From a phage, in the sequence record PZ445429.1: a stretch of 64,000 nucleotides of DNA; one strand, given 5' to 3'. This document shows positions 3,677 through 53,150 of the stretch, piece by piece; the stretch's first letter is position 1, and each line of letters begins with the position of its first letter. The notes beneath the pieces were generated by a model. The model was given only the letters and a program-made list of their open reading frames with translations. It was not told the origin of the DNA and ran no database searches. Made by a program: the position numbers and the translations under genes.

Positions 3677-4309
3677 ATGACAAATGCTGCTATTGACTAT
3701 AACAAGTTAAAATCAGCACCGGTTCATTTAGACGCTTACATTAAGTCTATTGATAGCGAATCCAAAGAGGGTGTTGTAAAAATCCGTGGATTCGCTAATA
3801 CAATTAGTAAAGATCGCGCTGGTGACGTAATTCCTGCTTCGGCATGGAAAACGTCTAATGCACTTGCTAACTACATGAAAAACCCGATTATTCTTTTCGG
3901 CCACGACCATCGTCGTCCAATCGGCAAGTGTATTGATCTTAACCCTACTGAAATGGGTCTCGAAATTGAATGCGAGATTTATGAAAGTTCTGATCCAGCT
4001 ATCTTCTCACTAATTAAAAACGGTGTACTGAAAACCTTCAGTATCGGATTCCGCTGCCTAGACGCAGAATGGGATGAAGCTACTGACATATTTATTATTA
4101 AAGATTTAGAACTATACGAAGTTTCGGTAGTTTCTGTACCTTGTAATCAGGACTCAACGTTCAACCTCGCTAAGAGTATGAATGGCCACGATTACACTGA
4201 ATGGCGCAAATCTTTTACTGCAACAAGTTCTAAGGCTGTCCCAGCTCAAGAACGTAATCTTTCTGAACTAGAAAAACTTGCGATAGCTTTAGGCTACGTT
4301 AAAGAATAA
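3677..4309 (+). CDS. Prohead maturation protease (T5 pb11-like, 210 aa)
   Basis: Size identical to T5 pb11; sits directly upstream of major capsid gene. Confidence 0.75.
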   Translation: MTNAAIDYNKLKSAPVHLDAYIKSIDSESKEGVVKIRGFANTISKDRAGDVIPASAWKTSNALANYMKNPIILFGHDHRRPIGKCIDLNPTEMGLEIECEIYESSDPAIFSLIKNGVLKTFSIGFRCLDAEWDEATDIFIIKDLELYEVSVVSVPCNQDSTFNLAKSMNGHDYTEWRKSFTATSSKAVPAQERNLSELEKLAIALGYVKE

Positions 4310-10702: not shown

Positions 10703-10737
10703 AAGTTTCCTCCAATGGGCGTTCCACGATGAGGCTT

Positions 10738-10770
10738 GGCTCTGGGTGATTTGCCCAGAGCCTTTTTTAT
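10738..10770 (+). terminator. Rho-independent terminator before tape-measure gene
   Basis: Hairpin ggctctggg-tgatttg-cccagagcc followed by TTTTTT. Confidence 0.7.
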
Positions 10771-10782
10771 TGGGAAAAATAA

Positions 10783-13700
10783 ATGACTGATAAGCTAATA
10801 CGAGAACTACTTATAGATGTAAAGCAGAAAGGGGCAACCCGTACTGCAAAATCTATTGAGAACGTTTCCGATGCGTTAGAAAATGCTGCTGCCGCTTCCG
10901 AACTGACTAATGAGCAGTTAGGAAAAATGCCCAAAACTCTTTACTCCATTGAGAGGGCGGCGGATAGAGCAGCTAAAAGTCTAACTAAAATGCAGGCTAG
11001 TAGAGGCATGACTGGTATCACCAAATCTATGGATAGTATTGGTGCTAAGTTAGATGACCTTGCTATTGCTATGATCGAGGTATCCGATAAGCTAGAGTCT
11101 GGATTTACACACGTTGGGAAATCTGTTAAGGCGATGGGTAACGATGTAGCTGCTGCAACTGAAAAAGTTCAAGATAGATTATATGATACTAACCGAGCAC
11201 TAGGTAATACTGCTAGAGGCTTTAATGATACAACTACCGCTGCAGGACGTGCTAGTCGTGCAATTGGTAATACTTCTGGTTCAGCACGTGGTGCAACTCG
11301 TGACTTTGCAGCTATGGCTAAAGTGGGTGGTGGTTTACCTCTTATGTACGCTGCTATCGCATCTAACGTGTTCGTTCTACAATCTGCATTCGAACAACTT
11401 AAGATGGGTGACCAGTTAAACCGTCTTGAGAAGTTTGGTACTATTGTTGGTACTCAAACAGGTACTCCGGTACAAACTCTAGCTAGATCTCTACAAGAGG
11501 CTGCTGGTTATGCAATCTCCTTCGAAGAAGCAATGAGACAAGCATCCTCTGCTTCCGCATATGGATTTGATGCTGAACAACTTAATAAATTTGGTCTAGT
11601 AGCTCGTCGTGCTGCTGCTGTTCTTGGTGTTGATATGACTGATGCACTTAACCGTGTAATCAAGGGTGTATCCAAACAAGAAATCGAACTTCTGGACGAA
11701 CTTGGTGTTACTATTCGTCTTAATGATGCTTACGCTGACTACGTTAAACAGTTAAATGCTGCTAACACAGGTATTACGTATAACGTCAATAGTCTTTCCA
11801 CTTTCCAAAAGCAACAAGCATATGCTAACGCAGTAATCGCTGAATCTACTAAACGTTTCGGCTACTTGGATGACGTACTTCGTGCAACTCCATGGGAACA
11901 GTTTGCTGCTAATGCTGATGCTGCCCTGAGAAAGGTTCAACAGGCTGCTGCTAAGTATTTAGGGCCGGTAATTGATTCTATTAACGCAGTATTCTATACT
12001 TCTCAAGCATCTATCTCAGCTTCTGCTGCTAGAGCACAGGAAGAAACTAACCGTCAGATTGACCCAACTAACGTTGGTGCTGTAGCTTTAAGTCTTTCCG
12101 CTTCTGAGGAAGGATATAATAAAGCTCTTGATATGTATAAAGAATCTCTAGAAAAGCGTAATAAGTTAAAAGCTGATCTAGACAAGCGTATGGAACAGGC
12201 TGACTTCTTTACCGCAGGTGCAATTCGTTCTGTGGCTCAAGGTGTTCCGGTAAGTGCTGCGGCTCTTGGTGCTTCGGAGGAAAACAAGAAGTTCGTAGCT
12301 GAAACTGCGGCTATGGCACTCCAAGTAGAACGTTTGGATAAGGAAGTTACTGATTCAACCGATAACTTAGGTGCATGGAAATCTGCATATCAAGCTGCTG
12401 GTGCTGCGGCTGCTAAGGCTAATCCAGAATTTCAGAAGCAGATTAATCTGCAGAAGGATATGAATGACCCTGATGCGGTTTATGACTTTAACTCCGCAAC
12501 TCTGAAAGGACTGACAGAACAGCAGAAAGCATATGATCAGGCTAAGAAAACTGCTAGTGATTTAGCTAACGATATCCAGAACATTGCTCAGAATACTAAT
12601 ACTGCGGCTAAAACTAGTGCATCCCTATCAGATACGATTAAGACTATTGAGTCTCTTTCTGCTGGTACTGGTAAAAATGCTGATGAGTATGTTAAGAGCC
12701 TGAACTTAGGATATAATACCCTTAGTGAGATGAAGACTGCTTCACAAGCTCTTGCTGGTTATGTAAAACTAACCGGTAATGAAACTAAGAATCAGTTAGA
12801 AGTTCAGCAGAAGATTGCCGAAGTGTATAACCAGACTAAGGACAAAGAGAAAGCACAGGAAGCTGGTAGACGTCTGGAAATCCAACAGTTAGAAGAACAG
12901 GAAGCAGCTCTTAAGCGTGTCCTAGAAACTAACAAGGGTAACAAAGCAATCGAAGGTGAGATAGCTAAGATTCAGTTAGAACGTATCAAGATCACTAACC
13001 AGGGTATGGAAGCTCAGAAGAAGGTTAAGGATTATACCGATAAGATTCTTGGTGTTAATCGTGAAATTGCTCTCCTGAATAACCGTACTATGACAGATAC
13101 TCAATATCGTTTAGCTCAGTTGAACCTTGAACTGACTGTCGAGAAAGAAAAGTATGAATGGTACTCCAAACAGGTTGATAAGCATAAGGAAGCTGAACAA
13201 TCAAGACGTGCTCAGGCACAAATTGAACGTGAAATATGGAAGTTCCGTCAGGATCAGCAGATGGAAATGGCTTCTGGACGTGAAAGAGCTCTTAATATTT
13301 CACAGATTAGCAGAAACGTTACGGGGGAATCTCAGAGACTAACCGAACAGCAAGCTCTGTACCAAAGTTTACTGGAAATTACAAAAGGAAATGCACAAGC
13401 TCAGGAAGAGTATAAGCGTAAAATCCAAGAAACTTCGGCAGCTCTAGCACAGCTTAAGATGCAACGTGATGCTCAGATGCAGCAGCAAGTCACTTCTTCT
13501 GTTGGTGGTGTTTACACTCCAACAACTGGACTGGAAGGAGATGATAAAGCAAATATGGATATGCAGAATAGAATGGCATCCTATGACCAGGCTATTTCTA
13601 AGCTGTCTGAACTGAACTCCGAAGCAACTGCTGTAGCACAAAGCATGGGTAACTTAACTAATGCTATGATCCAGTTCTCCCAAGGATCTCTGGATACTAC

Positions 13701-39028: not shown

Positions 39029-39796
39029 TTATTCAGCAGCCGCAGCTTTTGCATCCAGTTTAGCACGCTTAGCAGCACCATCATAGTCCTTAGCAACCAG
39101 ACCACGACGAGACAGCATAGATTTAACACCGCGCTCAGACTTACCAGTTTTCTCAGCAACTTCTGCAACAGTCATAGAAGCCAGATCCAGACCTTCTAAC
39201 AGATCTTCACGAGTCTTAGCACTTGATGTTTCCTGTACCGGCATAGCAGCGATACGACCTTCACGAAGCAGGCTCAGAGCTTTACCACGGATCTGCTTAA
39301 TATTACGACCGAAGTGAGCAGCGATAGCTTCAATAGTAGCACCAGCAACAACCTGATTAACGAAATCAGTTTCTTCGTCAGGAGTGAAGGAACGAACAGC
39401 AGCAGCTTTTTCAGTTGGCTTAACAGAAGCGGTCATTTCCAGACTCAGGATCTTACCCTGTACCTGCTTAGCACCGAACTGACCACCAGCTACAGCAGCA
39501 GCGATTTCAGCGTAAGTATACTGACCAGCATGAGCGTTCAGGAAATCAACTAGTTCAGCTTCCTGCTCAGGAGTCCACGGGGATTTCTGTACTTCGTTAG
39601 CTTTCTGTACTTCGAAACCTTCTTTACGCAGCTTAGAGCCAACAGAGCGAGCGGTAACGTCTTTGCCAGTCTCGGTAGCCAGTTCAGCAGCGATAGCAGC
39701 TACTTGTTCTTGAGAGATTACAGCAACACCCAGAGCAGTGGCTTTTGCTTTCAGAGACTCGGTTACACCTTCTACGTTCCAGTTCAGTTTAGACAT
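39029..39796 (-). CDS. DNA-binding protein with four tandem HTH-like repeats (T5 D5-like)
   Basis: 255 aa, Ala-rich, four repeats of roughly 35-aa modules; host-optimised codons. Confidence 0.5.
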   Translation of the reverse strand: MSKLNWNVEGVTESLKAKATALGVAVISQEQVAAIAAELATETGKDVTARSVGSKLRKEGFEVQKANEVQKSPWTPEQEAELVDFLNAHAGQYTYAEIAAAVAGGQFGAKQVQGKILSLEMTASVKPTEKAAAVRSFTPDEETDFVNQVVAGATIEAIAAHFGRNIKQIRGKALSLLREGRIAAMPVQETSSAKTREDLLEGLDLASMTVAEVAEKTGKSERGVKSMLSRRGLVAKDYDGAAKRAKLDAKAAAAE

Positions 39797-40571
39797 TATT
39801 ATTTTTCTCCAATAGTTCTTTAATCGACAGGATTTCTATCCCATTCGTTTCGGCTTTCTTATAAGATGAGGAAGAACGTTTTGATTCATCCTCACAGATT
39901 AGGTATTTGACGTCTTTGGTAACGGACTTCTTGACCGTATATCCTAGACTTTCTAAATAGTTTGTTGCATCCGTTCGATTTGCAAAGTCTTGCAAAGATC
40001 CGGTAATACAGACCGTGATTCCATTTGGCTGGGCAACTAAATCATCTGTAATGATGATATCAGCTTTAGCACCTCGAATACCAGTTGAGAATTTCCACGG
40101 TAGTTCAATAACATCCTTGCCTTGTGGGGAATTTAGCCAGGTTTTGTAATTTTCTCCAGCCTTGCCGTCAGCCTTCACATCGTGGAAGCTAGTGCAATTT
40201 TGGGACAGTTTCTTTGCTGCAACCTCTCCAATAAGAGGAATTCCTAAAGAACCGAGAACTGAACCAAAGTCAATGTCTCCGCGAACCTTAGTATTTAACT
40301 CGCTAATCAACTTAGCGGCAACCTTGCTACCCACAGCTCCTACCAAATCTTCTTCGGTCAGGTAAAACAGTTCTGAGATCTTAGTCAGCTCCAGCTTCTC
40401 AATAGTTTTCGGGCCAAAGCCCTTTAACTTCATTTTTGTGCAGAAGTTCTCGATTAACTTACTTGATTGCGCTGGACAGTTGGACTTATTCCTACAGAAT
40501 AATTGCCCGTTGACAAGATCTAGCTTAGAACCACAAGAGGGACATTGTGTTGGAATTTCGATTTTCATCAA
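39789..40571 (-). CDS. ligB: NAD-dependent DNA ligase, subunit B (zinc finger / HhH / BRCT part)
   Basis: N-terminal C4 zinc finger (CPSCGS...CRNKSNC), HhH region (KLKGFGPKT), C-terminal BRCT-like segment (ITGSL...YLICED). Confidence 0.75.
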   Translation of the reverse strand: MMKIEIPTQCPSCGSKLDLVNGQLFCRNKSNCPAQSSKLIENFCTKMKLKGFGPKTIEKLELTKISELFYLTEEDLVGAVGSKVAAKLISELNTKVRGDIDFGSVLGSLGIPLIGEVAAKKLSQNCTSFHDVKADGKAGENYKTWLNSPQGKDVIELPWKFSTGIRGAKADIIITDDLVAQPNGITVCITGSLQDFANRTDATNYLESLGYTVKKSVTKDVKYLICEDESKRSSSSYKKAETNGIEILSIKELLEKNNNV

Positions 40572-40770: not shown

Positions 40771-41745
40771 TTAGTCGTATACTCGCTCTACTATACAAGG
40801 GATTACACCACCAGCACGAATCACTCGAATCTGGCAACCGATCTCTAAATCGAGAGCGTTAATATAATCAACGTTATTAAGAGTTGCTTTAACGATTGTG
40901 GCATCATCAATAATCACCGGTTCGAAATAACCAACTGGAGTTACTTTACCAGAAGCCCCTACTTGCCATTCAACTTTAACAAGTGTGGTAATTTCGCCTT
41001 CTTCATCCTCTTTAATAGCAAATGCACCACGAGGAAATTTATTAGTCCAACCTTCACGGAAGAATTTGTTGTTATCATTAATACGAACAACTTTACCATC
41101 TGTCGGAATCCATTTAAAGAAGGAACGAACATTAATAACTGTCAAGAAGTTCTCATTCTCTAGCCAAAGCATATCTTTTAAATAGGCTTCTGTAATACCG
41201 ACTGTTTCCGCTGAACACTGGATACCATATGCAACGAAGATTAAACCACCTTCACCAATACGTTGCATGAAATCATCACTATCTTTTAGGTTAATAGCAC
41301 CAGAAGCATAGTTACGTTTGTTCTCTACTTCTTTAGTAATGAGAACTTCACCAGTGATTTGAGTTGGTACTTTTTGGGAAATAGTTTTGGGGATGTTCAG
41401 CATTTTAACATTATGCGTTACATCATTCCCTAGAATACCGTTACCACGAGTTAACGCTTGAACAAACTCACCATTAATATATAATAGAGAAATCGCACAA
41501 CCATCTAACTTATCAGTTTCAACCTGACCAAGTGGGTTGAATGGAGCTTTATCACCACGATCGTAATAGACTTTCTGCAAAGAATACATACGATACAAAT
41601 GAGGGATATCACCTTTCGGTCCGATTTCTTCCTCTAGTGGGAATCTTTTAATCAGACGATCATATTCTTCATCGGAAATAAGACTCATTCCCTGGTAGTA
41701 CGCTTCTTGACAACGTTTAATAAAGTCTTTTACATTATTCATCAT
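40771..41745 (-). CDS. ligA: NAD-dependent DNA ligase, subunit A (adenylation / OB part)
   Basis: Adenylation-domain KxDG motif (KLDGCAISL), NAD-ligase N-terminal helix (EYDRLIKRF). Confidence 0.75.
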   Translation of the reverse strand: MMNNVKDFIKRCQEAYYQGMSLISDEEYDRLIKRFPLEEEIGPKGDIPHLYRMYSLQKVYYDRGDKAPFNPLGQVETDKLDGCAISLLYINGEFVQALTRGNGILGNDVTHNVKMLNIPKTISQKVPTQITGEVLITKEVENKRNYASGAINLKDSDDFMQRIGEGGLIFVAYGIQCSAETVGITEAYLKDMLWLENENFLTVINVRSFFKWIPTDGKVVRINDNNKFFREGWTNKFPRGAFAIKEDEEGEITTLVKVEWQVGASGKVTPVGYFEPVIIDDATIVKATLNNVDYINALDLEIGCQIRVIRAGGVIPCIVERVYD

Positions 41746-47787: not shown

Positions 47788-47873
47788 ATTTTTCCGAAGG
47801 TGCTATCAGTGTCTTTGAGCACAGAGAAAACCGAGCCAAAATGACTCGGTAATCAGGATTGGACTAATGAAAA

Positions 47874-48269
47874 TCAATCATCATTTAGGCCTGGAACATA
47901 GATCCCAATGCGATTTAATTTACCTTTAGCTTCTTCGAGAATATCTTCGGTGTACTCCCAAATATCATCTTCTACTTGCAAAAGATAAGGGGATTCACCA
48001 GTTTCGGGGTCACGTGTAATGGCTAAGCCACGTGGATGGAATATAGAGAAGTTGAGGGCAACAATCAAGCCCATACTGGACAATTCATTCCAGTCAGCTT
48101 CCCAACCATCATCTTCATCTTCGTCCACAAAGACACCTACACTAGGGTCTGTTACAGAAGTAAACGGAAATGTTACACTAACCTTGTCAACCCCCAACCA
48201 ACGTGCAAGGAGCCCTTCAGCACGCTCTACCAAACTAGGATCTATCTGACGCCAAAATACTTGTTCCAT
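47874..48269 (-). CDS. Hypothetical acidic protein, paralog B of tandem pair (131 aa)
   Basis: Shares motifs with adjacent ORF (WNELSSMGLIVALN, ETGESPYLLQV, IGIYVPGL). Confidence 0.55.
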   Translation of the reverse strand: MEQVFWRQIDPSLVERAEGLLARWLGVDKVSVTFPFTSVTDPSVGVFVDEDEDDGWEADWNELSSMGLIVALNFSIFHPRGLAITRDPETGESPYLLQVEDDIWEYTEDILEEAKGKLNRIGIYVPGLNDD

Positions 48270-48278
48270 TCTGCCTCC

Positions 48279-48707
48279 TTAAGCAGTTAAACCTGGGATC
48301 ATATACCCTAAACGACGAAGTTTCTGAATCCCCTCATTTACTTCTTCGGGCGAATATGACCAGCCCTCACGTTCATTTACCTGGAAAGCAGGAGCTTCAC
48401 CAGTGCGATAGTTTACAATAAGACGGTGATTTGCAGGCATAAACAGCTTATGGTTCAAGGCAAAAACCAGACCCATTTCATCGAGTTCTTTCCAGTCTAC
48501 AATTTCTTCTACTCCCTCACCTAAATCCACGCTAACTCCAATACATGGAGCTTCCTCTAGTGGGCCTTTAAAGGATAGGAAGATATCGTTATTCTCACAC
48601 CAAATCTTAAGCAGATTGATGGTTTCATTATACATACCATTAGGGAGAGAACGCCAGAAGTTGAGGAGCATAGGGTTTACCTCTTTCATGAAAAGATTAT
48701 CGAACAT
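48279..48707 (-). CDS. Hypothetical acidic protein, paralog A of tandem pair (142 aa)
   Basis: Shares motifs with adjacent ORF (WKELDEMGLVFALN, RTGEAPAFQV, LGYMIPGL). Confidence 0.55.
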   Translation of the reverse strand: MFDNLFMKEVNPMLLNFWRSLPNGMYNETINLLKIWCENNDIFLSFKGPLEEAPCIGVSVDLGEGVEEIVDWKELDEMGLVFALNHKLFMPANHRLIVNYRTGEAPAFQVNEREGWSYSPEEVNEGIQKLRRLGYMIPGLTA

Positions 48708-48709
48708 AT

Positions 48710-49249
48710 TTACACCTTAAGTTTCTGAAGAGCCTTACACATTTCAAGATCTGGACTAAACTCCAGCATATAGCTGATAGCATTTAAATCTTGAAGGTTT
48801 ATTCCAGTCCTGCCATTTACAATAACAGTAGGGAATTGGTACATCATAGCACCAGCATCATCTAGGACACACCAATGCTTGAGCTTATATTTTTCGACGA
48901 AACGTAAAACAGAATTACCCCGAGATAAACCACCTCCAGTAAAATCTGTTGTACCAAGGAAACGATCGATCAAACCGAGTCCGGTCATAATCTGAACGTT
49001 CTCCATTTCATTTCGTACAGAAAACCATGAAGAGACCCCAACAATCATTATTGGGGAGGGTTTAAGAAAGTTCTGAAAAGCCTGGAGTAATGGCTTATAA
49101 ACCCAATCACTGCCAAAGAACAGCTTTTCACTGTCTGGAGCATGATGGTGAGAGATGCTCGAATTGAGCACCCCATCAATATCCAGGAAAATCACAGGAG
49201 TATTACTTATTTCCACTAGTAGCATCCCACGTCCAGACTTTAACTTCAT
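48710..49249 (-). CDS. HAD-superfamily phosphatase-like protein (possible nucleotidase)
   Basis: HAD motif I FLDIDGVL near N-terminus; alternative start at Met 49225. Confidence 0.55.
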   Translation of the reverse strand: MKLKSGRGMLLVEISNTPVIFLDIDGVLNSSISHHHAPDSEKLFFGSDWVYKPLLQAFQNFLKPSPIMIVGVSSWFSVRNEMENVQIMTGLGLIDRFLGTTDFTGGGLSRGNSVLRFVEKYKLKHWCVLDDAGAMMYQFPTVIVNGRTGINLQDLNAISYMLEFSPDLEMCKALQKLKV

Positions 49250-49388
49250 CAGTAAAAGGAACCGGAACCTTCAATTCACCTTTACCCCACATAACAGATA
49301 GGAACAGAGAATAAATGGTAATCATACCGATTAGGTTGACAAACCATACTAGACCTTTCCAGATACCCTTAAAAATCTTCTTCACCAT
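49203..49388 (-). CDS. Small membrane protein (about 61 aa from internal Met)
   Basis: Single predicted transmembrane helix (GLVWFVNLIGMITIYSLFLSVMW). Confidence 0.4.
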   Translation of the reverse strand: MVKKIFKGIWKGLVWFVNLIGMITIYSLFLSVMWGKGELKVPVPFTDEVKVWTWDATSGNK

Positions 49389-49551
49389 ATTCTCCCTCCT
49401 TAATAAGGAACTCTTTCCATTCTGCTGTATCCTCATAGATAACGCAGAAATCATCACTCTTCCATGAGAAGTCATCGGTAGCAAATTCGAAACGGTAGCA
49501 CCAACTACCGTCCGGCCATACTAAAAGATCACACATGCTCTTGCGGTGCAT
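49369..49551 (-). CDS. Hypothetical small acidic protein (60 aa)
   Basis: ORF overlapping the end of the SIR2-like gene and the start of the membrane-protein ORF. Confidence 0.35.
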   Translation of the reverse strand: MHRKSMCDLLVWPDGSWCYRFEFATDDFSWKSDDFCVIYEDTAEWKEFLIKEGEYGEEDF

Positions 49552-50380
49552 AAATAGTTCCTTCCATAAAGGCTTCTACTTGACCAATGAAATGCTTGTT
49601 ACCAAAAACTTCGGCAGCTCCAGCACGCCATACAGTAACACCACGTTTCTCATACTCAAGCTGTTCATCATAACGAACTTGAGGATTAACAACCATCATC
49701 TTAGTTCCACGACATACAGCAGGAAATAATTCCCAGTTGAAGTTGATAACTTGGTTGCTACAACCCACCACAATAACCATGTCATTGCTAGTAAGAGTAT
49801 CAAACAGGTTGATTTGACCCATGTACCACGGAGCCGTCTCACCAAAGAATGTTACGTTTGGTTTTACCCATTCGTAATCCTCAGGGGCAATCGCAGTATA
49901 CCCAACATCTTCGATGATTTGGTTGCGACCCTGACGATAGATCACCTCTTTCAAGTACCCGTGAGCGTGAATGATTTCATCACGAGGGATACCAGCACGT
50001 TCCAGAAGGTCATCAACGTTAGTAGTGAAGTTCTTCACGCTATCCGCACCATAACGCTGGAACCATTCTGCAATTCGCAGATGGGCAATGTTAGGCTCAA
50101 CAGTCTGTAATTCCTGACGACGCATGTTGTAGAACTCATGAGTCTTGAGATATAGATCGTTACCATCTTCATCAATGCCAGGGAAACGAGCACTGAAGTA
50201 GTTAGGATCATCTTCACCACAGAAGCGACGGAAGCCAGCTTCAAAGTTAGGCAAGCTACATACTTCCTCTAGATCGTACTCATCCCACAAGGATTTCCCA
50301 CTAGCAGTATCAGTACGGAATGCACGGATACCACTATCAACACTTAAACCAGCACCACTAACAACGATTAGTCTACGCAT
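49529..50380 (-). CDS. SIR2 (sirtuin)-family protein lacking the zinc-ribbon cysteines (283 aa)
   Basis: Sirtuin Rossmann motifs GAGLSVDSGIRAFR and NVDDL...HAHG plus VVVGCS...VVNPQ; no CxxC...CxxC zinc module detected. Confidence 0.65.
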   Translation of the reverse strand: MRRLIVVSGAGLSVDSGIRAFRTDTASGKSLWDEYDLEEVCSLPNFEAGFRRFCGEDDPNYFSARFPGIDEDGNDLYLKTHEFYNMRRQELQTVEPNIAHLRIAEWFQRYGADSVKNFTTNVDDLLERAGIPRDEIIHAHGYLKEVIYRQGRNQIIEDVGYTAIAPEDYEWVKPNVTFFGETAPWYMGQINLFDTLTSNDMVIVVGCSNQVINFNWELFPAVCRGTKMMVVNPQVRYDEQLEYEKRGVTVWRAGAAEVFGNKHFIGQVEAFMEGTIYAPQEHV

Positions 50381-50574
50381 TATACGATTCCTTGCTTGAA
50401 TCCTTCGATGATATTTTGGAGCAGAATTGCTTCTTCTGGGCGAACCTTCTCTTGCTTAATAAGCATATCCAAACCAGCAATACAGGTAGCTACTCCAGCA
50501 TTATACCCAGCATTCCACTGCTCCATGAGCATATTTTCTAAATTACTTTTTAGATTCTGATTCAAGAAGTCCAT
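50380..50574 (-). CDS. Hypothetical small protein (about 64 aa)
   Basis: ORF upstream of SIR2-like gene; start placed at MDFLNQN. Confidence 0.35.
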   Translation of the reverse strand: MDFLNQNLKSNLENMLMEQWNAGYNAGVATCIAGLDMLIKQEKVRPEEAILLQNIIEGFKQGIV

Positions 50575-50746
50575 AAAGTTTTTCCTCCAATTCCATAATA
50601 CGATTTTCGTAAGAAGCACGCAGCTTCTCGATGGACAAAGCACGAACTGTAACTTCATCTGAATTGATCGCTAGCTGAGCTAGATCTTCTGTTTCCATAC
50701 GTCCGTTGTAAATTAAGCGATATTTGAGATGTTTTACGTTTTTCAT
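50543..50746 (-). CDS. Hypothetical small protein (67 aa)
   Basis: Charged coiled-coil-like ORF. Confidence 0.35.
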   Translation of the reverse strand: MKNVKHLKYRLIYNGRMETEDLAQLAINSDEVTVRALSIEKLRASYENRIMELEEKLYGLLESESKK

Positions 50747-50755
50747 TCTTGTTCC

Positions 50756-51037
50756 TTAGTTCTGTACTGTAAACTCATTCTTATCACAGTGAGCATAATA
50801 ATACCCATACATACGATAAATTTTCACAGCCTTAGTAGACCCCTTCGATTCTTCATAATCGATCCAGAGCCACTTGTCTTTACCTACATAATGTACCCGA
50901 AACTTCTTAACTTTCTTATCATTCCATGTTGCAACAACACGACGATAATCAAATCCGCCCAACCAATCTAGAGCCTTACGTTCTTCACTAGGCTCTCCAA
51001 GATGGGAAACATCTACTTTAGGAAGCAATTCGCTCAT
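50756..51037 (-). CDS. Hypothetical protein (93 aa)
   Basis: First ORF after promoter at 51060-51096; leader with GAGAGGAG RBS. Confidence 0.5.
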   Translation of the reverse strand: MSELLPKVDVSHLGEPSEERKALDWLGGFDYRRVVATWNDKKVKKFRVHYVGKDKWLWIDYEESKGSTKAVKIYRMYGYYYAHCDKNEFTVQN

Positions 51038-51097: not shown

Positions 51098-51130
51098 AAA
51101 TAAAAGCCAGGTCGACTAGCAACCTGGCTG
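51098..51130 (-). terminator. Rho-independent terminator downstream of nrdD
   Basis: Hairpin agccaggt...acctggct with A-rich run on + strand (U-run on - strand). Confidence 0.6.
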
Positions 51131-51135
51131 ATTCA

Positions 51136-53010
51136 TTATTTAGCGCGAATGTCCTGATGTTTCACTCGACCCATAACCTCATGTTGTTTACCTGGGTTAA
51201 ACGGACGAGCACCTGGATTTCCAAGATAGCCACAAACTCGACGAGTTACCTCAAGAGTCTCAGGATCATGGTTGCCACAAATAGGGCATTTGAAACCATC
51301 CTCAGAAGCTATAGTTTCACCCAAGAACCCACATTCCCCACAAGAGTCTACTGGAGTATTAATACCGAAGTAATGAACTTTACTTGCAGCATAGTTAATA
51401 ACCCATTCCAGTGCATCAGGGAATCGTTTCATATCCGGTAATTCCACATAGGAAATGCACCCACCAGAAGCAATAGGAGTAAAGTTAGACTCATAATCAA
51501 ACTTCACATTTGGAGCAACCTTACGTTCTACATCAAGGTGATGGGAATTAGTGTAATATCCTTTAGCCAGAATATCTTCATGCTCTGGGAAATACTCACG
51601 GTCTAGGCGACAGAAGCGATCACATAGAGATTCAGATGGTGTAGCATACAGACTATACCCTAATTGAGTCTCTTCCTTCTTCTGATCAGCACGATCACGC
51701 ATGTATTGTAGCACACGTTGAACGAACTTGATACAAGACTCAGACATTGTATCTACATCTTTACCAAACATGAGTTGCAACATTTCGTGGCAGCCAATAT
51801 ATCCTAGGGATACAGAAGCACGCTTGTAGAAATGATCAAATACATATTCATCTGGCCCCAGACGTAATCCAAAGGCTCCTGACATATAGAGGATGGGCGC
51901 AGCTTTAGCTTGAATGTATTTTAAGCGATCAACTCTCCACTCCAATGCTTTTAACGCGGTATCCACACGCAGCTCAAGCAGATCGAAGAATAGATCAATA
52001 TTTCCTTCCGCTTCGATAGCGATTCGAGGAAGGTTTACGGAAACAACGCCTAAGTTGTTACGACCAGAAGTTTCACCATCTTCCGCAGCAGCCAGGAATG
52101 AACGACAGCCCATAGAGACTTTGTAGCCCCCCGTAACTTCTACAACCTTATCATAACTGATGTAGTCAGGATACATACGTTCAGCAGTACATTTCATAGC
52201 TAACTTCTTGATATCATAGTTAACATCACCAGGTTTCATGTTTACGCCCTCACGCAAAACAAATACCAGTTTAGGGAAGATAGCTGTACGTTTATTGATA
52301 CCCAAACCATCCATACGTACTTCTAGTATTGCTTTCTGTACAAGACGTGCTTCCCAAGAAGTTCCTAGACCAAAACCAAAGGTAATAAACGGACTTTGAC
52401 CATTAGAGTTGAACATCGTATTGATTTCATACTCCAGGCCCTGACAGGCATCGTAAACTTCTTTCTCAGTCATTTCCGTAGCCATTACAGATGCTTTAGC
52501 TTCATCCTTAGTCCAGCGCTTTGCAAACGCATGATTCTTATCATAAGACTTACGAACATAAGGAGCCAATACTTCATCTAATCGGTCCACAGAAGTACCC
52601 CCATATTGATGTGAACTAACCTGAGTGATAATCTGAGCTGTGATAGCAGCCGCAGTAGTAATAGAGTTTGGTGTACTGATTTCAGCATTACCAACCTTCA
52701 TACCATTCTTCAACATATCTTCCAAAGCAACCAGGCAACAGTTAGTCATACCTAACGCAGCGTAATCAGCATCATGGAAGTGAATATCACCAATCATGTG
52801 AGCATTTCGAATCTGGATTGGCATTTCTTCCAGAATCAGATATTTACTCAATTCCCCTGCAAGCATATCCCTTTGTGTAGGGAAACGTTCTGAGGGCTTA
52901 TTGGCATTATTAAACAGCAGCTCTTCATCTGCTGAACCTTCGATAATTTCTTTGCAGTTTCGAATCAAGGACTGCATTCCTTTATACTTTAGTTCTTCAT
53001 TGCGATTCAT
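51136..53010 (-). CDS. nrdD: Anaerobic ribonucleoside-triphosphate reductase
   Basis: C-terminal zinc ribbon (CGECGF...CPICGN) and glycyl-radical motif (RVCGYLG); 624 aa. Confidence 0.85.
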   Translation of the reverse strand: MNRNEELKYKGMQSLIRNCKEIIEGSADEELLFNNANKPSERFPTQRDMLAGELSKYLILEEMPIQIRNAHMIGDIHFHDADYAALGMTNCCLVALEDMLKNGMKVGNAEISTPNSITTAAAITAQIITQVSSHQYGGTSVDRLDEVLAPYVRKSYDKNHAFAKRWTKDEAKASVMATEMTEKEVYDACQGLEYEINTMFNSNGQSPFITFGFGLGTSWEARLVQKAILEVRMDGLGINKRTAIFPKLVFVLREGVNMKPGDVNYDIKKLAMKCTAERMYPDYISYDKVVEVTGGYKVSMGCRSFLAAAEDGETSGRNNLGVVSVNLPRIAIEAEGNIDLFFDLLELRVDTALKALEWRVDRLKYIQAKAAPILYMSGAFGLRLGPDEYVFDHFYKRASVSLGYIGCHEMLQLMFGKDVDTMSESCIKFVQRVLQYMRDRADQKKEETQLGYSLYATPSESLCDRFCRLDREYFPEHEDILAKGYYTNSHHLDVERKVAPNVKFDYESNFTPIASGGCISYVELPDMKRFPDALEWVINYAASKVHYFGINTPVDSCGECGFLGETIASEDGFKCPICGNHDPETLEVTRRVCGYLGNPGARPFNPGKQHEVMGRVKHQDIRAK

Positions 53011-53032: not shown

Positions 53033-53072
53033 GACTACTATTATAACTCATTCGAAGGCGGATGTCAACAAT
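53033..53072 (-). promoter_or_regulatory. Consensus sigma70 promoter (TTGACA, 17 nt, TATAAT) for nrdD
   Basis: On - strand: -35 at 53063-53068, -10 at 53040-53045. Confidence 0.65.
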
Positions 53073-53112
53073 ATTTTACTATAAAGTTCTGTAACATGAT
53101 CTGAGTCAAAAA

Positions 53113-53150
53113 ATTTTATTTGCCAACCTCTACTAAAAATAGTATAATCA
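53113..53150 (+). promoter_or_regulatory. sigma70-type promoter (TTGCCA, 17 nt, TATAAT)
   Basis: -35 at 53120-53125, -10 at 53143-53148; A/T-rich upstream. Confidence 0.55.

Follow-up and report, generated by a model that had tools for sequence, protein, structure and literature searches.

The minus-strand gene at positions 49529-50380 of the window (the whole analysed stretch of 64,000 nucleotides) encodes a true sirtuin of 283 amino acids that has kept the NAD-binding and catalytic residues of the family and has lost the cysteines of the zinc module. Following Iyer et al. (2022), it is tentatively regarded here as a non-homologous analogue of the RNA 2'-phosphotransferase Tpt1/KptA, a reading to which we give a probability of roughly 0.4. 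The finding as such is already known, as the gene is annotated as Sir2-like in hundreds of genomes (about 960 phage records), the loss of the zinc ligands was described in 2016 (PMC5107563) and the clade, its neighbourhood and the functional hypothesis were published in 2022 (PMC9503650); the novelty implied by the sequence-only reading is thus not upheld. New here are the covariation of zinc loss with the change from TQN to TTN and the presence of two roughly 52% identical sirtuin alleles on near-identical T5-like backbones. To the account of Iyer et al. (2022) we add the acidic charge of the clade, the absence of ligase, cREC and kinase in T5-like phages and the position of HAD homologues beside NARP1-like genes. 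The literature searched contained no experiments on sirtuins of the TTNVD clade encoded by phages.

A phage sirtuin without zinc ligands

The open reading frame starts with ATG and is real as first delineated. It is carried by a T5-like Epseptimavirus that is 99.5% identical to Salmonella phage bux. Profile searches assign the product to the SIR2 family far beyond chance, with 78.9 bits for Pfam SIR2 (PF02146, cutoff 24 bits, E=6e-22) and E=2e-107 for PHROG 2162, and phmmer aligns it with CobB (1S5P, E=1e-16) at about 27% identity. The sirtuin Rossmann signatures that had been quoted from the letters alone were all recovered, i.e., SGAGLSVDSGIRAFR at residues 8-22, TTNVDDL...IHAHG at residues 119-141, VIVVGCS at residues 202-208 and MMVVNPQ at residues 228-234. 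The Rossmann NAD-binding motif GAGxSxxSGIPxFR is present as GAGLSVDSGIRAFR, with R in place of P. Invariant in 38 diverse homologues are G9, A10, G11, S13, S16, G17, F21 and R22, furthermore P96, N97, H100, N121, D123, H140 and G141, and K173, P174, F178, F179, E181, G206, S208 and N232; the catalytic His140 is found in 140 of 140 representatives. The Gln of the TQNxD motif is replaced by an invariant Thr (T120) in the phage clade. The AlphaFold (AF2) model shows a two-domain sirtuin fold (pLDDT 87.6, pTM 0.86) with an intact NAD-binding Rossmann site and the catalytic His in place, as had been expected. Its best Foldseek match is CobB (E=1e-16, target-normalised TM 0.83), followed by Sir2Af1 and SIRT5, and all of the 50 top fold matches are deacylase sirtuins. 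Judged by its sequence, the NAD-dependent enzyme apparently is catalytically competent. In class III sirtuins a Y-x-x-R pair binds the anionic group of acidic acyl-lysines, and the FY84NMR87R motif of the phage protein, which aligns with FY92NAR95R of CobB, is invariant in the family. As part of the tentative best explanation, the lineage would be phage-specific and derived from class III (CobB/SIRT5-like) enzymes. The protein is acidic (pI 4.81, net charge -16), as is the whole clade (group medians 4.9-5.4).

Cysteines occur at positions 41, 54, 207 and 223 only, no CxxC is present anywhere in the protein and residues 142-172, the usual site of the zinc ligands, are free of Cys. This confirms the absence of the CxxC...CxxC ligands that had been claimed before; the further claim that the zinc-ribbon module is missing applies to the cysteines and not to the beta-ribbon of the small domain, which is retained. 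The segment from HG to KPNVTFFGE has about the length of that of CobB (31 aa), and codons 142-172 (49865..49957, minus strand) encode a Cys-free beta-hairpin with a conserved D[IV]GY motif, modelled as strands E141-150 and E153-158 with a pLDDT of about 95, so a deletion of the zinc ribbon was rejected. All T5-like, Vequintavirinae and phAPEC8-type members have 0 or 1 Cys at the zinc module, and the loss of zinc ligands tracks the change of TQN to TTN. For the Sir2/CobB of Vibrio phages, loss of the zinc ligands with retention of the catalytic His was noted in 2016 (PMC5107563), and the Sir2La preprint contains no precedent for a zinc-less active sirtuin. A second variable element, encoded by codons 48-76 (50153..50239, minus strand), is an insert in the helical small domain with the lowest model confidence and patchy presence across the family.

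The HAD partner and the neighbourhoods of related sirtuins

The gene lies within a minus-strand replication and nucleotide block that shares synteny with the early 'D' genes of T5, in agreement with the early location proposed from the sequence. The small ORFs noted there as neighbours were confirmed (PHROGs 5827, 7953, 5116 and 11166); the informative neighbour, a HAD_SAK_2 phosphatase, and the hypothesis that was built on it (PMC9503650) had been missed. All elements that follow are located on the minus strand. Upstream of the sirtuin, a small ORF of PHROG 5827 (50380..50658; 64 aa in the bux annotation) overlaps the sirtuin ATG with its TAA stop codon (TAATG) and is preceded by a 67-aa ORF (50543..50746) and a 93-aa ORF of PHROG 7953 (50756..51037), the first gene past the NrdD terminator. 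Downstream, a 60-aa ORF of PHROG 5116 (49369..49551) overlaps the 3' end of the sirtuin gene by 23 nt, and a 61-aa ORF of PHROG 11166 (49203..49388) separates the two from the HAD gene; the PHROG 5827, 67-aa, PHROG 7953, PHROG 5116 and PHROG 11166 products are of unknown function. The HAD_SAK_2 gene (48710..49249; PF18143, E=8e-18; DIDGV and VLDD motifs) thus is situated two small ORFs downstream of the sirtuin; in the bux annotation it starts at 49225, which yields 171 aa. Two tandem DUF7415 paralogues of 142 and 131 aa (47874..48707) form the end of the unit. The boundaries are set by terminator-like hairpins after NrdD (51105..51129; 10-bp stem and T run) and after the second DUF7415 gene (47830..47850; 9-bp stem), and the nearest strong promoter upstream is a perfect sigma-70 consensus (12/12) in front of NrdD (53040..53068). 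Sirtuin and HAD hence share one hairpin-bounded segment (51105-47830) with overlapping genes, and their co-transcription is part of the tentatively favoured explanation. The structural model of the HAD protein is excellent and its Foldseek matches are too weak to point to a substrate, the best being MDP-1 (E=4e-3), with phosphatase domains of PNKP at E values of at least 0.1; a search with the HAD_SAK_2 sequence against the PDB returned no match.

Sirtuin loci of other phages, sampled from a handful of backbones, were grouped by their neighbourhoods using average linkage. HAD_SAK_2 accompanies the sirtuin in 29 of the 32 T5-like loci, and in three T5-like lineages the sirtuin stands without it. 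Pantoea phage AAS21 has the pair with the gene order inverted, and it recurs on an unrelated backbone, where the sirtuin is 38% identical. The sirtuins of BIS47 (Mydovirus) and EmilHeitz (Vequintavirus) are 47-55% identical and of the same type (TTNVD, C41, no Cys at the zinc module). In BIS47, a calcineurin-like phosphoesterase is followed by Rnl1 (PF09511, 3e-13), cREC (PF20274, 2e-17), an AAA_33 kinase, one small ORF and the sirtuin, and in EmilHeitz Rnl1 (1e-14) and cREC (9e-14) precede the sirtuin; these observations are not fully independent because both genera belong to the same subfamily. EmilHeitz additionally encodes a divergent kinase and phosphoesterase, and a tRNA cluster lies 5 kb off. 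In the window, in the T5 segment and in bux at 69-112 kb, neither tblastn nor the annotations revealed any such partner, be it an RNA ligase, cREC, AAA_33 kinase or calcineurin-type protein; the idea that the T5-like genome hides an Rnl1, cREC, kinase, Adps or Namat was likewise rejected, as tblastn detected none. On the phAPEC8-type backbone no repair cassette is located near the sirtuin, and its neighbours (DUF7275/7277 and others), considered as divergent ligase, cREC or kinase, had no such match in Pfam, PHROGs or BLASTP. All sirtuin neighbourhoods are also rich in genes of DNA replication and nucleotide metabolism, such as NrdD and DNA ligases. In ChuuTotoro-type phages, HAD_SAK_2 homologues are encoded directly upstream of a PRPP-synthetase-like and a NAPRTase-family gene, a pair with NARP1-like Adps/Namat architecture, and in BIS47 such a pair lies 5 kb from the sirtuin.

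Candidate substrates

In the preferred reading as Tpt1/KptA analogue, damaged RNA would react through a phosphate oxygen at an end or junction, which would attack C1'' of NAD+ under release of nicotinamide, and the HAD phosphatase would clean up what is left phosphorylated, either an RNA end or an ADP-ribose product. We infer the RNA 2'-phosphate as substrate of the sirtuin, the substrate of the HAD enzyme and every biochemical step, and the same prediction of RNA 2'-phosphate removal was published earlier (PMC9503650, section 3.7.3). Sirtuins and Tpt1 are named together as the two enzyme types that ADP-ribosylate an oxygen of the substrate, followed by a second attack by O2'' (PMC11417386), and in fungi the logic of Trl1 and Tpt1 (PMC10946426) unites ligase, cyclic phosphodiesterase and kinase with an NAD-dependent enzyme. 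Established by the analysis are the sirtuin fold and family, the invariant NAD-binding and catalytic residues, the missing zinc ligands, the sirtuin-HAD unit and, in related phages, the siting of the sirtuin next to RNA ligase, cREC and kinase. The invariant Y84/R87 pair, anion-binding in class III sirtuins, is counted for the analogy as well. To our knowledge, no sirtuin has been shown to act via a phosphate nucleophile or on an RNA phosphate. The RNA-repair pathway would be incomplete in the T5-like phages, since ligase, cREC, kinase and calcineurin-type partner were not detected there, and the three HAD-less lineages, the phAPEC8-type loci without cassette, the neighbourhoods rich in DNA genes and the acidity of the clade, unusual for a stand-alone RNA enzyme, speak against action on RNA too. 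If RNA 2'-phosphate removal is true, sirtuin chemistry would be extended from acyl-lysine to nucleic-acid phosphate, and enterobacterial phages would gain a Tpt1 analogue tied to tRNA repair and NAD economy.

A possible alternative, only slightly less favoured, is that the protein is a CobB-like NAD+-dependent lysine deacylase, with acetyl and acidic acyl groups (succinyl, malonyl) as probable substrates and zinc loss as mere structural simplification. Its early production would serve to reset how host or phage proteins are acylated, for instance metabolic enzymes or components of replication and transcription. The nearest relatives of the phage protein by sequence and fold are all deacylases, and all required residues, including FYNMRR (Y84, R87, R88) and FGE, are invariant. 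The acyl-pocket positions of CobB are kept or conservatively changed in the phmmer alignment (A76 to C41, Y92 to Y84, R95 to R87, I131 to V122, V187 to V176), which suggests an intact narrow tunnel for acyl-lysine and argues against the RNA reading. The acidic pI would fit a protein-modifying enzyme, the T5-like phages have no RNA-healing partners and some no HAD, and an in-silico study of a Vibrio phage Sir2/CobB came to the same conclusion (PMC5107563). However, deacylation leaves the repeated operonic siting beside Rnl1, cREC, kinase and SAK-type HAD unexplained, the clade invariants T120 (not Q), C41 and NQVINFNWELFP after GxS show that the clade has moved away from the CobB type under constraint, and every NCBIfam CobB/deacylase model scores far under its cutoff (best 88.3 bits versus 243; prot_deacyl_CobB 72 versus 320). 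Because the T5-like phages are without partners and the pocket looks CobB-like, RNA 2'-phosphate removal and deacylation both stay in contention. A deacylase would mean that T5-like phages reprogram the host acylome early in infection. The substrate question is directly testable, given a small protein of one domain and the genetic tractability of T5 and the BASEL phages.

A rather unlikely extension of RNA 2'-phosphate removal links it to NAD+ resynthesis. HAD_SAK_2 would convert phosphorylated ADP-ribose to ADP-ribose, which in BIS47 and ChuuTotoro might feed the adjacent NARP1-like Adps/Namat, so that the NAD+ spent on RNA repair would be rebuilt in a closed cycle, and the T5-like phages would possess a minimal version of sirtuin and HAD leaning on host enzymes. 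Less probable still is an action of the sirtuin-HAD pair on small-molecule NAD/ADP-ribose metabolites, with the HAD enzyme as ADP-ribose-phosphate, NADP or NMN phosphatase, by which the phage would manage the NAD pool or immune molecules derived from NAD, a counter-defence role. The NARP1-like pairs next to HAD_SAK_2 homologues in ChuuTotoro-type phages and near the BIS47 sirtuin would suit such a role, and bux carries a NadR-like NMNAT and PnuC (NARP3 type, PMC13464706) and an NAD-dependent DNA ligase; sirtuin chemistry, however, implies only NAD+ consumption, which works against NAD reconstitution, and tblastn detects no Adps or Namat in the T5-like phages. NARP1 operons recruit an ADPR-1''P phosphatase, although this Adpp enzyme is a Macro-domain protein (preprint 10.64898/2026.01.28.702374), and the capless HAD fold, judged by its weak fold matches only, more often acts on macromolecules. 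A locus driven by conflict would account for the deep divergence of the two sirtuin alleles, which are carried by near-identical backbones, but NrdD is equally mosaic and the replacement may reflect a plain recombination hotspot. Neither the NARP3 paper nor the aRES/phosphatase preprint holds data on a phage sirtuin or HAD, and the analysis provided nothing specific for the host-takeover or counter-defence factor envisaged by the sequence-only reading.

An NADase or protein ADP-ribosyltransferase for host shut-off, resembling defence SIR2 effectors or SirTM, is very improbable, as its single argument is that such activities are known in general for some SIR2 domains (PMC9503650), no PADLOC defence model matched at E<=0.1, the sequence and fold neighbours are deacylase sirtuins and not ThsA, DSR or HerA-type SIR2, no macrodomain or toxin-system partner was found among the scanned neighbours, and bulk NAD destruction would be self-defeating because the phage DNA ligase needs NAD+ and the phage carries NAD-supply genes. 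On the PADLOC and fold results a defence-type SIR2 was rejected in favour of a canonical class III (CobB/SIRT5-like) sirtuin, which corrects the earlier interpretation. SirTM, assessed by the top sequence and fold matches, from which SirTM structures are absent, and by the macrodomain partner (0 of 8 neighbouring products match a Macro domain), was rejected as well.

Relation to known systems

The phage sirtuin belongs to the family described by Iyer, Burroughs, Anantharaman and Aravind (2022; PMC9503650, section 3.7.3), where the clade and its HAD neighbour were described and a Tpt1/KptA-like removal of RNA 2'-phosphates was predicted. The window is a member of their type 3 (Escherichia phage SP15/T5-like), defined by a sirtuin with a 'Swiss-army-knife' HAD, without essential difference: the unit contains a SAK-type HAD and no macrodomain is encoded among the neighbours. 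The context of their type 2 (tRNA ligase, cREC, kinase, calcineurin-like phosphoesterase, MazG) is reproduced in BIS47 and EmilHeitz.

Defence SIR2 proteins (ThsA, DSR1/2, SIR2-HerA, SIR2-pAgo) and SirTM are NAD+ users of the same broad superfamily, whereas the phage sirtuin is single-domain, lacks a sensor domain and a HerA, pAgo or macrodomain partner, and has no PADLOC match. The Sir2/CobB of Vibrio phages KVP40, phiSt2 and phiGrn1 is likewise a phage CobB-like protein that has lost the zinc ligands and kept the catalytic His, but it is only about 32-35% identical to the T5-like sirtuin; its function was put as deacetylation of Acs by modelling only, and T5 is named among the carriers in the same study (PMC5107563). 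The best matches by sequence and fold are CobB of E. coli/Salmonella and human SIRT5 (PDB 1S5P, 6RXJ, 3RIY), with which the NAD-binding motifs, catalytic His, FGE, GxS and Y-x-x-R pair are shared. The phage protein differs from these by the missing zinc Cys, TTNVD instead of TQNID, the invariant Cys at the position of CobB A76, the long invariant segment after GxS and the variable 29-aa insert.

Tpt1/KptA, the proposed analogue, has an ART superfamily fold unrelated to the Rossmann fold of sirtuins, and Pfam gives no match to it and only SIR2 for the phage protein, which therefore is at most a functional analogue. The likeness lies in a chemistry that depends on NAD+ and runs in two steps, in which C1'' is attacked first and O2'' attacks thereafter (PMC11417386), and in the genomic company, as Tpt1/KptA partners a ligase/kinase/CPD enzyme in fungi and the phage sirtuin is found in similar company in the Vequintavirinae.

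Fold, conserved residues and genomic setting

The minus-strand ORF at 49529-50380 encodes a protein of 283 aa that the sequence-only reading had assigned to the SIR2 family, and this assignment was confirmed by profile searches with matches far above chance (Pfam SIR2 PF02146, 78.9 bits at a cutoff of 24, E=6e-22; PHROG 2162 'Sir2', E=2e-107). The Rossmann and catalytic motifs it quoted were all found in the product, and the absence of CxxC zinc ligands also holds, as the only cysteines are C41, C54, C207 and C223 and the whole protein is devoid of a CxxC motif. Among solved structures, E. coli CobB is the nearest in sequence (1S5P, E=1e-16); the NCBIfam CobB-type models all score far under their cutoffs on the protein. 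Structure prediction and fold comparison likewise returned a confident sirtuin: the AlphaFold2 model, built from an alignment of 38 homologues, has a pLDDT of 87.6 and a pTM of 0.86, and its best Foldseek matches are CobB at the top (target-normalised TM 0.83), Sir2Af1 and SIRT5.

Homologues of 56-86% identity show no variation at the NAD-binding and catalytic residues (GAGxSxxSG..FR, PNxxH, N121/D123, H140-G141, KPNVxFFGE, GxS and N232) or at the class III pair Y84-x-x-R87. CobB residue numbers were mapped onto the sequence alignment, with the offset validated on H147, C155, Y92 and R95. Three positions altered in CobB variants engineered for acyl selectivity, according to PDB titles, were compared: A76, I131 and V187 of CobB correspond to C41, which is the sole invariant cysteine, V122 and V176, so that by sequence the acyl pocket appears to be essentially of the CobB type. 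Deletion of the zinc module was considered and rejected, as the 31 residues between HG and KPNV are modelled as a confident beta-hairpin that is Cys-free; a conserved D[IV]GY motif is located within it.

The upstream gene NrdD (51136-53010) is preceded by a perfect sigma-70 consensus promoter (12/12; 53068-53040, minus strand) and followed by a strong terminator-like hairpin at 51129-51105. The divergent intergenic region 53040-53148 carries back-to-back near-perfect sigma-70 consensus promoters, the plus-strand one (11/12) pointing to PhoH and the minus-strand one (12/12) to NrdD. Between the hairpin after NrdD and the next one at 47850-47830, some ten minus-strand genes follow one another closely, in the order three small ORFs, the sirtuin, two small ORFs, a HAD_SAK_2 phosphatase (48710-49249, minus strand; PF18143, E=8e-18) and, as last genes of the unit, two tandem DUF7415 paralogues (142 and 131 aa; 47874-48707, minus strand). 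The sirtuin starts at a TAATG stop/start overlap with an AAGGA Shine-Dalgarno sequence. The sirtuin-HAD block shares synteny with the 'D' replication genes of T5, which are early genes by established T5 genetics. The DUF7415 paralogues are kept in 32/32 T5-like loci and are only 68-75% identical between phages that are otherwise 90-98% identical.

Salmonella phage bux (Demerecviridae, Epseptimavirus) shares 99.5% identity with the 3 kb around the sirtuin, which match 466 phage records by megablast; the counterpart gene in bux, bux_70, is annotated 'putative Sir2-like protein'. Phages of this type encode several NAD-linked functions beside the sirtuin: a NadR-like NMNAT with PnuC (bux_101/102, outside the window) and a split NAD-dependent DNA ligase, whose B and A subunits have separate genes in the bux annotation (39789-40571 and 40771-41745, both on the minus strand). 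The T5-like genome also carries about 28 tRNAs.

A zinc-less phage subfamily with two diverged alleles

An exhaustive search over 1.84 billion representatives yielded 18 matches at E<=1e-30, 326 at E<=1e-10 and 1632 at E<=1e-3. In the 140 alignable representatives, a ribbon free of Cys is associated with Thr120 (TTNVD), and one with at least three cysteines with Gln at this position (TQNxD) (28 and 74 concordant, 7 and 7 discordant; odds ratio 42, Fisher p=4e-14, uncorrected for relatedness). In the viral loci, TTN[VI]D, C41 and the Y/R pair recur in every T5-like, Vequintavirinae and phAPEC8-type member, and the ribbon never has more than two cysteines (0-1 in nearly every case). Two relatives from jumbo phages, 33-37% identical, are of the canonical TQNxD type and have 4-6 cysteines. 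An acidic character is common to the whole clade (pI 4.81 and net charge -16 for the window sirtuin). The zinc-less TTN phage sirtuins are a distinct subfamily. By tblastn, 964 of 50,697 phage records contain a relative, and the existing label is almost always Sir2 or NAD-dependent deacetylase; the carriers include T5-like, Vequintavirinae, phAPEC8-like, KVP40-like and several jumbo phages.

A Vibrio phage Sir2/CobB was modelled earlier, with the zinc ligand noted as absent and T5 listed as carrier (PMC5107563, 2016), and later a separate clade of viral sirtuins, with neighbourhoods of three types, was defined and proposed to remove RNA 2'-phosphates like KptA/Tpt1 (PMC9503650, 2022). The gene, the loss of the zinc ligands and a specific functional hypothesis are thus already known from databases and literature. 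Literature searches returned no experimental work on any clade member, and the remaining interest of this sirtuin is its biochemistry.

In 27 T5-like loci with flanks (PhoH, HAD, helicase, NrdA) 89-100% identical to the window, the sirtuin is bimodal, with 96-99% identity in 4 (L005-L008) and 50-52% in 23 (L024-L044 and L035, the last being T5 itself). The window allele shares 60-66% identity with sirtuins of phAPEC8-like and other phages, more than with the T5 allele. As NrdD is also bimodal (about 98%, 89-100% overall, vs 60-61%), independently of the sirtuin allele, the sequences imply a recombination hotspot in which the sirtuin has been replaced as a cassette.

Linkage to a HAD phosphatase

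Neighbourhoods were compared in 59 IMG/VR loci with 10-kb flanks, whose clustered ORFs define about eight backbones. The HAD gene accompanies the sirtuin in 29/32 T5-like loci and on one unrelated backbone (L060); in three distant T5-like lineages the sirtuin occurs without it. Starting in reverse from distant HAD homologues, the pair was found inverted in Pantoea phage AAS21 (HAD, a 118-aa ORF, SIR2), evidence that the linkage is real. The HAD gene of ChuuTotoro-type phages directly precedes a PRPP-synthetase-like and a NAPRTase-family gene, a NARP1-like Adps/Namat architecture (L065, Serratia phage ChuuTotoro ON287369, 6001-9217; L066, 6001-9569; NAPRTase-family product of 595 aa). A Macro-domain ADPR-1''P phosphatase occupies the matching operon position (Osterman et al. 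2026, 10.64898/2026.01.28.702374), so that the HAD protein beside Adps/Namat could be its non-homologous analogue. On one 175-kb contig an RNA ligase lies 3 kb from the HAD gene.

The HAD motifs DIDGV and VLDD are intact in the window and invariant across the HAD family. The model is highly confident (pLDDT 95.5), and its structural neighbours are all weak: MDP-1, a HAD phosphatase of the capless type, has E=4e-3, and the phosphatase domains of PNKP come no better than E=0.1. The substrate cannot be read from the predicted fold. PHROG 18062, labelled 'Sir2 (NAD-dependent deacetylase)', matches only the C-terminal 92 aa and seems to be the source of the 'Sir2 (x2)' listed at the locus in RefSeq re-annotations; as the protein is a HAD_SAK_2 phosphatase, the label is probably a propagated mis-annotation.

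RNA-repair neighbourhoods and candidate reactions

In Mydovirus BIS47 the genes are ordered calcineurin-like phosphoesterase, two small ORFs, Rnl1 RNA ligase (PF09511, 3e-13), cREC (PF20274, 2e-17), AAA_33 kinase, one small ORF, sirtuin and ATP-dependent DNA ligase, with a MazG-like gene farther along and, 5 kb away, a divergent Adps/Namat-like pair. Vequintavirus EmilHeitz has Rnl1 (1e-14), cREC (9e-14) and sirtuin in a row, a divergent kinase and phosphoesterase and a tRNA cluster nearby. No RNA-repair cassette was found among the sirtuin neighbours of the phAPEC8-type backbone, and Rnl1, cREC, kinase, Adps and Namat were not detectable in the T5-like genome.

The phAPEC8-type locus L003 carries, about 4 kb upstream of the sirtuin on the same strand, an Acb2/Tad1-hairpin domain gene (3942-4211; PF24729, by its Pfam name a domain of anti-CBASS/anti-Thoeris proteins), accompanied by a calcineurin-like phosphoesterase. 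On a 279-kb jumbo contig (L063) a canonical zinc-containing sirtuin is directly followed by a nucleoside 2-deoxyribosyltransferase-like gene (10713-11198; PF15891, E=1e-33), and on jumbo contig L062 the sirtuin comes after genes for an RNA ligase of the T4 Rnl1 type and an arginase-family protein.

The fold, conserved residues and gene linkages are observed; substrates and reactions we infer in every model. We give a probability of roughly 0.4 to the published model in which the sirtuin would act on RNA 2'-phosphate as an analogue of Tpt1/KptA, and this and the deacylase reading remain close. That the enzyme is a CobB-like deacylase is a tentative reading, consistent with the apparently intact acyl-lysine pocket, the Y/R pair, the acidic surface and the lack of the other repair enzymes in T5-like phages. 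A role on small-molecule NAD/ADPR or in counter-defence appears improbable, and host shut-off by NADase or ADP-ribosyltransferase activity highly so; defence SIR2 structures are absent from the top 50 Foldseek matches of the model and no PADLOC defence model matches the protein. The genomic context speaks for the Tpt1-analogue model: ligase, cyclic phosphodiesterase, kinase and NAD-dependent enzyme form a combination that corresponds to the logic of Trl1 plus Tpt1 (PMC10946426), and attack on C1'' followed by attack of O2'' is chemistry common to sirtuins and Tpt1 (PMC11417386).
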